A stretch of DNA of 64,000 bases from contig CAVZPR010000002.1 of the NCBI GenBank assembly GCA_963777285.1, positions 1,293,972 through 1,357,971 of the forward strand, in the 5' to 3' direction. Within the stretch, counting starts at the first letter, position 1, and each line of letters begins with the position of its first letter. The stretch is from Candidatus Dormiibacterota bacterium (lineage in GTDB: Bacteria > Chloroflexota > Dormibacteria > Aeolococcales > Aeolococcaceae). Below are positions 7,730 to 9,605 of the stretch, piece by piece. A model generated the notes under the pieces. The model saw nothing but the letters and a program-made list of their open reading frames with translations, had not been told where the DNA came from and did no database searches. A program made the translations under genes and the position numbers.

Positions 7730-8886
7730 ATGCTGAGGCGCCTAGTGCTCAAGGACTTCAAAGCCTTCGCTGACGCTGAGATTGCGTTTGAACCGCTCAC
7801 GATTCTCATCGGGCCTAATGGCTCCGGTAAGTCAACTGTCCTTCAGGCGGTCGAGCTCCTTGGTGGGTTGGTCCGTGGCACTTTGCAAGAGCACTTGGGC
7901 GCGCGGGCCTGGGAATACGAGGACCTTCCCAATCTTCTGGCGACCAATCCTCGGTTCTCTTTCGAGACGGTTATCGAGGACCACGGGAAAGAGATCTCGT
8001 GGTTCTTGGAGCTCGGAACGAGGCGAAGGCCCGGTATCGCAATGGAGCGGGTGACCGCTGAGGGTGAGGTCCTGTTATCGAGGAAGGGTCGCAGGATGGA
8101 GCGCGTTGACCGCTCCGACGGACAGTCCGAAGCTATCCAACAGACATTGACGAGTTCGTGGCTGTCAGCTATTGAGCCAAAGGCCGACTTAAGAAGGTTC
8201 CCCGAACTCGTAACGGTGGCGGAATGGGCTCGGGGTGTAGATCCATATTTCTTCCTTGATCCGTGGAGCCTTCGGAGACCATCGCGCAAGACTAAGGCTG
8301 GGGTGGGACGAGGTGGAGAGACGCTCGCGGGGTTTCTTCGCTACTTACGAGACACAGATAAAGCGGCATTCGATCGAGTGATCGAGCGCGTCCGAAAGTT
8401 CTATCGCCGGCTCTCTTTGGTCCGCCTGCTCGCTGTCAGGGCCGGCTGGACATCGATCGAAGTTACTGAAACCTGGGGCCAGAAGACAGCGGAATTAACG
8501 CGCGGCAGGTGAGCGATGGCCTGTTACGGCTGCTCGCAGTCTCGGCCCTCCACGAGCTGACGACGCCGCCGCGAGTGATCCTGTTTGACGAAATTGAGAA
8601 TGGGATGCATCCACGACTGCTGCGCGGACTCATCGAGCTACTCTCTTCCCTCGCTACCAAGTCACACGGTTCAACGCAGGTTATCGCCACGACGCACTCG
8701 CCCATCGCATTGAACTATGTAGCAGAGGCTTCCTCAGTCGTGTTGATTGACAGAGACCTGAAGGGTTTCGCGCGTGTCCGCCGACTCTCAGATTCAGAAT
8801 CGTACAAACGAATTGCTGGGGAGCTGGATCTCGGCGAGCTCTGGTACAATCTGGGGGAAGCTGAGCTCCTGAAAGGTGCGGATTGA
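7730..8886 (+). pseudogene. ABC-type AAA ATPase (AAA_15/AAA_21-like), split into 260-aa and 125-aa parts
   Basis: N-part: LKDFKAFADAEIAFEPLTILIGPNGSGKST (Walker A). C-part: SDGLLRLLA (signature-like), ILFDEIENGMHP (Walker B) and ATTHSP. The parts meet at GTGA (8509-8512). Upstream of 8509 the second frame reads ...ARQVSDG, so a single frame change joins them. Confidence 0.65.
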
Positions 8887-9605
8887 CGCACACCGTGTTC
8901 CTGGTTGGTGAAGGACCCAATGATATCGGGGATCTGGCCAGGGGACGTGAGCACAGGGGCGAGCAGGAGGGATATTTGCAGCCGATGATTCGCGCCCTAT
9001 GCCCTGCGTGTGATGTGAATTTCGAAGGCGGGCGGATCGCTCTACTAAGGAGGACGCGGATCAAGGACGTCCGAGACGCGCTGGCGCAGAGGGCTTACGT
9101 CGGCGTGATGACCGCCTTAGCGATCGGAGCGTCGGCAGTCGTAGTCCACATTGACTGTGACAAGACACCTGGTGAGCGAGCGGGAAACGTTGAGCGTCGT
9201 AAGCGGCTCGTGGCACGGCGGAGGGCCTTGGAAGCGGGATTCGAACATGCCCGCAACTCCGGGAAGTGCGGAGATATCGAGATGATTGCATGTGTTCCTT
9301 GCCGGATGACTGAGAGTTGGGCTCTAGCAGATAGTGGGGCCATAGCGAAGATTGGAGGGGACGAACACCAGCTGCCACCTCATCCAGAAAGAGTTTGGGG
9401 TGATGAGCAGGATCCGAATTCGAATCACCCGAAATGCCTTCTTCGTCGAGTGCTGAAACGTGCCTATGGAGGCGACGACCTAGCAGCAATTGCAGGCGCG
9501 TCGCAGCCGAGCGTCCTACGAGAGAAGTGTCCGGACAGCTTTACTCCTTTTGCTGACCAGGTCGTAATCGTGCGCAATCGTCTATGTAGATCGGGAAGTC
9601 CGTGA
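8883..9605 (+). CDS. TOPRIM-like / DUF4276-like partner of the ATPase
   Basis: 240-aa ORF overlapping the ATPase stop by 4 nt. Acidic motifs VFLVGEGPNDIGD, VVHIDCDKT and RMTESWALAD recall DUF4276/RloB/OLD-type TOPRIM proteins. Assigned from memory, not searched. Confidence 0.5.
   Translation: MTHTVFLVGEGPNDIGDLARGREHRGEQEGYLQPMIRALCPACDVNFEGGRIALLRRTRIKDVRDALAQRAYVGVMTALAIGASAVVVHIDCDKTPGERAGNVERRKRLVARRRALEAGFEHARNSGKCGDIEMIACVPCRMTESWALADSGAIAKIGGDEHQLPPHPERVWGDEQDPNSNHPKCLLRRVLKRAYGGDDLAAIAGASQPSVLREKCPDSFTPFADQVVIVRNRLCRSGSP

Follow-up and report, generated by a model that had tools for sequence, protein, structure and literature searches.

A predicted ABC ATPase–DUF4276 cassette with a frame-broken ATPase gene on a low-GC island of a Candidatus Dormiibacterota genome

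Three short ORFs in the genome of a Candidatus Dormiibacterota bacterium raise the question of whether they encode an ATPase–nuclease pair of the type known from phage defence, and whether the ATPase is truly made in two parts. A preliminary description of the window, that is, the whole 64,000-nt stretch of DNA that was analysed, had listed ATPase ORFs of 260 and 125 aa that meet at GTGA, a next gene with a 4-nt overlap and a set of motifs. All of these were confirmed, the next gene having 240 aa and the motifs being present in the translations. The features of the locus are collected in Table 1.

Table 1. Coordinates of the features discussed, as positions in the window
Feature	Position	Strand	Basis
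ABC ATPase, N-terminal part, 260-aa ORF	7730..8512	+	Pfam and PADLOC matches
Walker A, GPNGSGKST (aa 28-36)	7811-7837	+	Translation of 7730..8512
Frame-change site	8495..8497	+	Three-frame translation, alignment with 11 orthologs, codon map
ABC ATPase, C-terminal part, -1 frame	8497..8886	+	Pfam AAA_21, PDC-M25A, HEC-01A
Listed 125-aa ORF, GTG start	8509..8886	+	ORF list
Predicted DUF4276-family Toprim-like partner, 240 aa, intact, TTG start	8883..9605	+	DUF4276, HEC-01B, hhalign
Putative metal-binding residues: E10; D91 and D93; E144	8910-8912; 9153-9161; 9312-9314	+	

Both ATPase pieces matched ABC ATPase profiles above the cut-offs. Pfam AAA_15 gave 40 and 35.7 bits for the two pieces (cut-off 32.1), and AAA_21 gave 32.5 bits for the N-terminal and 68.9 bits for the C-terminal piece (cut-off 27), covering the consecutive profile stretches 1-79 and 238-303 of 304. 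The best PADLOC profile, PDC-M25A, was likewise matched over contiguous coordinates, with the N-terminal piece at positions 1-245 of 380 (133.6 bits, E 2.3e-39) and the C-terminal piece at positions 251-358 (73.1 bits, E 5.4e-21), and HEC-01A, the next profile, followed with one match per piece (E 1.2e-16 and 3.8e-22). As the matches run on from one piece to the next along a single profile, the two ORFs are one ABC ATPase (AAA_15/AAA_21), with a head of the OLD/PtuA/SMC type. The N-terminal piece also contains the Q-loop region and a beta-rich insert, while NARQ, the signature-like VSDGLLRL, Walker B ILFDEIE (ILFDEIENGMHP), the D-loop and the H-loop ATTHSP are found on the C-terminal piece. 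The order of the motifs (GPNGSGKST, QVSDGLLRL, ILFDEIE, TTHSP) is canonical, and the nearly invariant columns of the ATPase family are all retained. As the window ATPase is frame-broken, the ABC head fold was assessed on P0002, an intact ortholog standing in for it; the window protein is 54% identical to the intact 383-aa orthologs. The AF2 model of P0002 reached a pLDDT of 93.1, and its best Foldseek matches were PtuA, Smc4, Rad50, SMC and Ts OLD (E 2.5e-13 to 5e-11). Together with the matches of the C-terminal piece to the PADLOC profiles AriA (E 1e-19) and AbiLi (E 5e-14), this bears out the kinship with OLD-, PARIS- and AbiL-type pairs that had been suggested.

In the deposited sequence, however, the gene does not form a continuous ORF. 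Compared with all intact orthologs, a single base is absent at the frame-change site, where the codons TTA (frame 0) and AAC (-1 frame) overlap at base 8497. Similarity to the orthologs follows frame 0 up to TETWGQKTAE(L) and the -1 frame from NARQVSDGLLRL onward, and the 260-aa product has 258 homologous residues and then runs out of frame for 2-5 residues to a TGA stop. The frame change lies approximately 12 nt upstream of the GTGA junction (8509-8512), so GTGA is only a chance stop of the old frame, with the lesion elsewhere. When both frames were joined with an X, the read-through protein scored 548.8 bits on the ortholog HMM, on which the orthologs themselves score 550-640. An uninterrupted ATPase frame spanning the HMM was found in 13 of the 14 related loci, at the length of approximately 385 aa that had been anticipated for a single protein, and all full-length homologs have 365-403 aa. 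The missing base parts Walker A, on the 260-aa product, from the signature, Walker B and the H-loop in the other frame, and the ATPase as deposited is non-functional.

The partner gene begins with a TTG that overlaps the ATPase stop (TTGA, 8883-8886), and its translation contains LVGEGPND, HIDCDKT and TESWAL. The window protein matched Pfam DUF4276 (PF14103) with 20.1 bits (E 8.5e-4), which is below the gathering score of 30.2, HEC-01B in part (E 4.7e-7, residues 111-194) and PDC-M25B weakly (E 0.0025, residues 1-35 only). Within its 22-member family, 20 proteins matched DUF4276, all 22 matched HEC-01B and 16 matched PDC-M25B (best E 5.5e-9), and a comparison of the family with 16 canonical DUF4276 proteins by hhalign gave a probability of 97.3% (E 1.7e-11, 184 columns). 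By these comparisons, the partner is a divergent DUF4276 relative that falls below Pfam's own threshold. It retains 13 of the 13 invariant columns of its family, which include D91 and D93, and E10 is nearly invariant (at least 90% of the 22 members).

The Toprim-like nature of the partner, also proposed earlier, fared less evenly. In the alignment and in the AF2 model (pLDDT 92.8; strands at residues 2-8, 44-50, 85-89 and 133-137), a Glu follows strand 1 and a DxD follows strand 3, which is the placement of these motifs in the four-stranded alpha/beta core of Toprim domains. Similarity to solved Toprim domains was recovered by neither structure nor profile searches: Foldseek of the partner model against PDB and BFVD returned no Toprim structure, an hhalign comparison of the partner family with OLD-type Toprim gave nothing, and the partner profile gave only a spurious SgcJ match among PDB sequences, with MAD4 not among the matches. 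It is the homology to DUF4276 and the position of the motifs that underlie the putative TOPRIM assignment. The resemblance to RloB or DUF4435 proteins that had been considered was not recovered, as DUF4435, AriB and RloB (AbiLii) gave no match to the partner in Pfam or PADLOC, and NCBIfam models gave none at E<=0.1. Among the PADLOC models, HEC-01B and PDC-M25B alone matched the partner.

The two genes belong together. In each of the 14 loci, the partner directly follows the ATPase and shares its strand; 11 of these loci had been found via the partner alone. Where genes were called, at three loci, the start codon overlaps the stop by 1-4 nt. The loci are mostly from Myxococcota. No conserved third gene was found at the related loci; apparent recurrent neighbours of the pair turned out to be antisense shadow ORFs and were discarded, and the two upstream and two downstream genes in the window have no homologs beside the pair elsewhere. 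The cassette of the stand-alone clade strictly comprises two genes, and the comparisons above show both the identity of the two proteins, an ABC ATPase and a DUF4276/TOPRIM-like partner as first described, and their pairing.

Between roughly 4 and 29.5 kb of the window, the GC content is approximately 0.60, compared with 0.70-0.72 in the host, and the pair was not found in the 60 relatives searched. The pair thus lies on a low-GC island of approximately 25 kb that is foreign to the host, and the cassette was probably acquired horizontally. No tRNA or attachment site was detected in positions 1-30000 (ARAGORN, Rfam), and a promoter and terminator scan gave nothing exceeding the shuffled expectation. 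Two operons, one for type I R-M and one ubiquitin-like, and a NucS-like nuclease-DUF4268 gene share the island with the pair, and the island is visibly decaying. The R-M operon is broken, with hsdR in four frame segments separated by three frame changes (relative to a 78%-identical intact HsdR) and hsdM in at least three pieces; an IS256-like element has inserted with a target duplication (GCATCTC), and the HExxH motif of YgjP is altered to PExxH.

With regard to the origin of the missing base, we favour a genuine and recent inactivation, which we consider somewhat more probable than not being the case, because the surrounding island decays and the rest of the pair is perfectly conserved. Against a genuine lesion, the pair shows no other sign of relaxed selection in the read-through score and the conserved residues checked. 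An indel in the assembly or consensus would instead leave the organism with an intact ATPase of approximately 385 aa and a potentially working cassette, and this explanation is a serious one, to which we assign a little less than an even chance. A GC3-phase scan of 2.19 Mb gave 49 candidate in-gene frame changes, most of which appeared true when inspected, and this implies that the assembly contains indel errors. The inspected core genes with such changes comprised glgX, hslU, nuoN, an NRPS gene and a uvrD-like helicase gene, and breaks were further found in the single-copy leuS (split at window position ~60265-60300) and in the main, better-scoring dnaE (dnaE1, split at model position 622). 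Given the breaks in leuS and dnaE1, an error has to be reckoned with for the ATPase as well. The read-through ATPase scores like a bona fide member, the partner has kept its invariant residues, and the hsdR and hsdM breaks are likewise indels only, at short G4/C4 runs and without in-frame stops. However, the detectable rate in core genes is approximately 1 per 45-50 kb, which corresponds to a chance of roughly 2-3% for a 1.16-kb gene, whereas the verified breaks on the island are far denser (3 in 3.2 kb of hsdR and at least 3 in 1.5 kb of hsdM). The insertion element and the His-to-Pro change of YgjP are moreover lesions of another kind than indels, the island IS copy aligns with a second copy with 0 gaps over 1390 nt, and positions 8495-8497 lie outside any long homopolymer. 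The genome completeness of 88.75% had also been considered as a signal of error and was dropped, as one-contig relatives score 90-92%.

Synthesis of the ATPase as two polypeptides, or through programmed -1 frameshifting, with halves that reassemble into one ABC head, is a further reading, which we regard as very improbable. ABC heads of the SMC/Rad50 type can be divided structurally into an N-terminal and a C-terminal half, and separately expressed halves can reassemble. In the P0002 model, the position of the break lies between the sheet nearest the insert and the signature helix, and the overlapping stop and GTG at GTGA could permit termination-reinitiation. Yet the orthologs are single-frame in nearly all loci, every full-length homolog falls within the size range given above, and NARQ with its invariant Gln (Q260 in the family alignment) is encoded 5' of the GTG in the new frame, so that it falls outside both ORFs and would be lost from both products. 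Neither a slippery heptamer nor a long homopolymer or long A/T run occurs at 8480-8512 (context GGAATTAACG), and no Shine-Dalgarno sequence stands at a usable distance from the GTG. Programmed frameshifting was rejected on the missing slippery site, the position of NARQ and the single-frame orthologs. A real but tolerated break, in which termination-reinitiation at GTGA yields a reassembled ABC head that controls the DUF4276 nuclease, has hardly any chance of being correct; if true, it would be a naturally split OLD-type ATPase. Among the readings first offered for the junction, the genuinely split ATPase was thus set aside, leaving the frameshift mutation and the sequencing error.

For comparison with known systems, the closest group is found in PADLOC. 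PDC-M25 shares with the window pair the two-gene layout of A followed by B, a B protein of approximately 245 aa and the best ATPase match; the window pair differs in that its partner matches PDC-M25B over the first 35 residues only and its A gene is frame-broken. PDC-M25 is a predicted 'phage defence candidate', one of 145 predictions by Payne et al., and its anti-phage role is a prediction for every member (bioRxiv 10.1101/2024.01.29.577857). HEC-01 (Hma-embedded candidate 01, an ABC ATPase with a TOPRIM-like protein) has the same domain logic, and the window ATPase matches HEC-01A with an adjoining match to HEC-01B. The window pair is not Hma-embedded, however, and its ATPase matches are weaker than those to PDC-M25A. 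In E. coli assays, HEC-01 gave no protection against the phages tried (bioRxiv 10.1101/2024.01.29.577857). From these profile matches, the cassette looks like an ordinary member of PADLOC's PDC-M25/HEC-01 group.

To our knowledge, MAD3-MAD4 of the Pseudomonas aeruginosa system MADS is the only biochemically studied ATPase-DUF4276 pair. It likewise consists of an ABC ATPase and a separate DUF4276/Toprim-like protein, and MAD3 has the structural neighbours SMC, Rad50 and PtuA in common with the ortholog of the window ATPase (PMC13662399). Its characterisation in 2026 described a 2:2 heterotetramer, an assembly-dependent ATPase and DNA cleavage (PMC13662399), and MADS3-4 is listed among ABC ATPase + TOPRIM systems (PMC11464382). 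For the window pair, MAD3-MAD4 is the best mechanistic template at hand. With this structure and biochemistry, and with HEC-01 assayed (bioRxiv 10.1101/2024.01.29.577857), the earlier view of the DUF4276-partnered variant as uncharacterised is outdated. The window pair differs from MADS in that it stands alone, the neighbouring ORFs scanned including no MADS-type gene, and in that its NCBIfam MADS3 scores, 46.6 and 50.8 bits, stay far below the cut-off of 420. PARIS (AriA-AriB), OLD, Gabija and AbiL also couple an AAA_15/AAA_21 ABC ATPase to a Toprim-superfamily nuclease, but the window partner is of the DUF4276 type, in contrast to DUF4435 (AriB), RloB (AbiLii) and OLD-type Toprim, and the window ATPase is shorter (385 aa) and unfused to the nuclease.

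The locus is thus likely to be a horizontally acquired cassette of an ABC ATPase and a translationally coupled, predicted nuclease of the DUF4276 Toprim-like type, which belongs to the PDC-M25/HEC-01 group and would work in the manner of MAD3-MAD4. Complex formation, substrate and defence function are what we infer by this analogy. The ATPase and its partner would most likely form a 2:2 complex in which the nuclease might be stable only when bound and the ATPase might be active only once assembled, and the complex would cut nucleic acid as an anti-phage effector. A role outside phage defence, for example as a module for addiction or island stability or as a DNA-processing pair, is unlikely. 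It would fit the negative result of HEC-01, the sole stand-alone ATPase-DUF4276 pair to have been tested, the status of PDC-M25 as one prediction among many (bioRxiv 10.1101/2024.01.29.577857) and the flanking genes, which at the three loci where genes were called are mostly housekeeping and not defence genes. However, MAD3-MAD4 is part of a defence system whose activity has been validated (PMC13662399, PMC12065111), the ATPase clade clusters with the profiles of PtuA, OLD, AriA and AbiLi, the island carries the R-M, NucS-like nuclease-DUF4268 and ubiquitin-like genes named above, and at one locus (L003) an OLD-like AAA_15/DUF2813 gene adjoins the pair.

On its own, the window pair matters little, as it contributes a single broken copy to a family that is already in PADLOC (PDC-M25, HEC-01) and whose nearest studied relative, MAD3-MAD4, already has structure and biochemistry. 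For this genome, the frame breaks that the assembly shows in essential genes mean that any call of a 'pseudogene' or 'split gene' requires read support. Since the clade is concentrated in Myxococcota, tests would best be made with intact copies from cultured Sorangium strains. For the family, the partner proteins constitute a divergent, sub-threshold branch of DUF4276 in which Glu, DxD, Glu and Trp are clearly conserved as a set.

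The three open reading frames of the cassette were recovered in the window ORF listing at exactly the coordinates of the preliminary description, and each motif quoted there was found in the translations. Both ATPase pieces match successive parts of one profile: in Pfam AAA_21 (304 positions) the first piece covers 1-79 and the second 238-303, and in PADLOC PDC-M25A (380 positions) the first covers 1-245 (E 2.3e-39) and the second 251-358 (E 5.4e-21). The nearest database homologs are at most 54% identical, and all full-length ones are single proteins. An AF2 model of one intact ortholog (P0002; pLDDT 93.1) found its top PDB structural matches in PtuA (Septu and retron effector ATPases), Smc4/SMC heads, Rad50 and the Thermus scotoductus OLD nuclease (E 2.5e-13 to 5e-11). 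Among solved chains, Ts OLD (6P74) is the nearest in sequence, the match spanning only the N-terminal 56 residues. The window ATPase belongs to the OLD/PtuA group of ABC ATPases, as had been proposed.

Features of the cassette and of the surrounding island (window positions)
Feature	Position	Strand	Description
ATPase piece 1	7730-8512	+	260-aa ORF
ATPase piece 2	8509-8886	+	125-aa ORF, GTG start within GTGA
DUF4276-like partner	8883-9605	+	240-aa ORF, TTG start within TTGA
IS256-like element	10553-11945		intact 408-aa transposase; within DUF4268 gene
hsdM	13769-15100		N6_Mtase domain in at least 3 pieces
hsdR	17177-20408		four frame segments vs 78%-identical intact 1075-aa homolog
YgjP-like metallopeptidase	20377-21111		downstream of hsdR; full-length profile match

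When both window reading frames were aligned with 11 full-length homologs, frame 0 tracked the ATPase family up to ...EVTETWGQKTAE(L) and the -1 frame tracked it starting at NARQVSDGLLRL. Base 8497 belongs both to TTA (8495-8497) of frame 0 and to AAC (8497-8499) of the -1 frame, so one base is missing at 8495-8497 compared to all intact relatives, and the GTGA found 12 nt past the frame change is simply the stop site of the old frame. The X-joined read-through scores 548.8 bits on the ortholog HMM (550-640 for the orthologs themselves), and the gene is pristine except for this single lesion. As deposited, the sequence places Walker A and Walker B on separate ORFs, and therefore the ATPase cannot work in this form.

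The partner matches Pfam DUF4276 with 20.1 bits (E 8.5e-4), which is below the threshold of 30.2, while 20 of the 22 members of its family match DUF4276, all 22 match PADLOC HEC-01B and 16 match PDC-M25B. Profile-profile comparison of the family with 16 canonical DUF4276 proteins of other genomes reached a probability of 97.3% (E 1.7e-11, 184 columns). Within the family, E10 is nearly invariant and D91, D93, E144, W146, D150, E169, W172, G173 and C216 are invariant; the window partner retains every one of these residues. Its AF2 model (pLDDT 92.8) contains four strands at 2-8, 44-50, 85-89 and 133-137 and shows the Toprim arrangement, with the conserved Glu after strand 1 and a DxD after strand 3. 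Foldseek of this model against PDB and BFVD gave no match at E<=0.001, nor did its top 50 include any Toprim nuclease (the PDB copy searched being older than the literature's DUF4276/Toprim entries), and hhalign of the family against OLD-type Toprim segments was null. Canonical DUF4276 was aligned to OLD Toprim by hhalign with a probability of 44% (E 2e-4), Glu and DxD being matched, and the putative link from partner to Toprim is solely transitive, through canonical DUF4276. DUF4276 has been assigned to the Toprim superfamily (PMC12065111). Of the earlier TOPRIM/DUF4276-like reading, the DUF4276 homology and the Glu/DxD placement held, while the direct Toprim tests came back empty; since the link is only transitive, the Toprim assignment of the partner is based on homology, motif placement and literature.

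Three contigs found via the ATPase carry a DUF4276-like gene immediately downstream of it, with a 1-4 nt overlap and unrelated flanks. A further 11 genome loci were found via the partner alone (Sorangium, Byssovorax, Polyangiaceae, Kofleriaceae, Labilithrix and other Myxococcota), and all have the ATPase directly upstream on the same strand. The proposed pairing is thus conserved in 14/14 loci (3 + 11). Across the loci compared, neither a recurrent third gene nor counterparts of the genes on either side of it in the window were found beside the pair, and the partner was not found in 60 genomes of host relatives (2 of the same genus, 34 of the same family, 24 of the same order). Upstream of the pair lie two intact overlapping genes of 204 aa each (window 6325-7522), one of which has a hydrophobic segment at its N-terminus; neither matched anything in Pfam, PADLOC or NCBIfam. 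As no counterpart lies beside the cassette in the 14 other loci, they do not belong to it. Among these loci, L030:1808-5596 (Polyangiales MAG JAXLYG010000044.1) is a second degraded cassette, with ATPase HMM positions 1-334 only and the partner across two frames. At L003:8670-10406 (-), a 578-aa AAA_15/AAA_21/DUF2813 (OLD-like) gene adjoins the cassette, and at L029:5603-6910 a distant ATPase paralog (78 bits) follows ~850 nt downstream of the partner.

The pair lies within a ~25-kb stretch with a GC content of ~0.60 (range 0.56-0.66) versus 0.70-0.72 in the host and 0.70-0.75 in the flanks, which marks ~4000-29500 as a foreign island. ARAGORN and Rfam detected no tRNA or other RNA genes in window 1-30000. 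hsdR has three frame changes, near 17425-17434, 18551 and 20136-20239, and no in-frame stops; the first two are located at G4 and C4 runs, and the third is placed only to within ~100 nt. Two indels at most 10 nt apart (14455-14475) disrupt hsdM, one at a C4 run, the other at an A3 run. The zinc motif of the YgjP-like gene reads PELLH (PExxH) where HExxH is expected, a substitution and not an indel. The IS256-like element interrupts its DUF4268 host gene and has the direct repeat (target duplication) GCATCTC on both sides; a second copy at G000:C1:691565-692954 is 99.7% identical (4 mismatches, 0 gaps over 1390 nt), and a 204-nt remnant lies at C2:45371-45571.

With regard to assembly quality, the only leuS gene of the host genome (window 58940-61568; G000:C2:1353148-1355536) is in two frames, with a break near 60265-60300 at ...AYAGDGPM / NSGEFDGL.... 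As leuS is single-copy and essential, this is almost certainly an assembly indel, a warning that any frameshift called in this genome has to be backed by reads. Of two dnaE genes, the one with the better score (810 + 406 bits; G000:C2:117068-120173 (-)) is split at model position 622, and the weaker paralog (C2:321555-324278) is intact, as are rpoB, rpoC and two further long synthetase genes. Over 2.19 Mb of coding DNA with strong periodicity, a GC3-phase change-point scan yielded 49 candidate in-gene frame changes, five of them in the core part of the window (31863, 37619, 46450, 48835, 60294). Ten candidates were inspected by eye: seven were clear (glgX, hslU, nuoN, a USP gene, an NRPS adenylation domain, a uvrD-like helicase and dnaE), one was uncertain (CopD-like membrane protein) and two were ordinary gene junctions.

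A genuinely split ATPase had been offered as one option; like programmed frameshifting, it is extremely improbable. The Gln of NARQ is invariant across 39 sequences. In the new frame the NARQ codons lie 5' of the GTG, and neither product would contain this motif. The break-site context GGAATTAACG holds no slippery heptamer or long A/T run, and orthologs encode one undivided ATPase, with full-length homologs of 365-403 aa and a single uninterrupted frame in 13 of 14 related loci. An assembly error has to be taken far more seriously and may quite possibly be the cause: besides the split leuS and dnaE and the GC3 candidates, the breaks in island genes are indels at short runs without in-frame stops, and no further relaxation is seen in the ATPase-nuclease pair, both as locally poor consensus would give. 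However, the detectable core rate of ~1 frame change per 50 kb predicts only a ~2-3% chance of error for a 1.16-kb gene. We lean towards a real, recent inactivation of the ATPase, because the verified break density in hsdR and hsdM is ~1 per kb, the island also bears non-indel lesions, and its IS copy is gap-free against its twin.

The analysis shows both domain identities, conserved putative catalytic residues and a strict, translationally coupled pairing. MAD3-MAD4 forms a 2:2 complex with assembly-dependent ATPase activity, in which the nuclease is unstable alone and DNA is bound and cleaved (PMC13662399), and PARIS, of the same architecture, releases a tRNA-cutting nuclease upon sensing a phage protein (PMC11464382). 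By analogy with MAD3-MAD4, ATPase and partner would assemble as a 2:2 complex, ATPase activity would arise only upon this assembly, the nuclease partner would be unstable on its own, and the complex may bind and cleave DNA. A partner without a working ATPase would, following the MAD4 precedent, be unstable. With a partner that is neither DUF4435, RloB nor an OLD-type Toprim, the cassette falls outside PARIS, AbiL and OLD as strictly defined, and MADS is ruled out (NCBIfam MADS3 ~50 bits versus a cut-off of 420). It fits PADLOC PDC-M25, one of 145 untested candidates, whose relative HEC-01 was tested and gave no phenotype (bioRxiv 10.1101/2024.01.29.577857). The window cassette is a further, possibly dead, copy of the already catalogued PDC-M25/HEC-01 kind.
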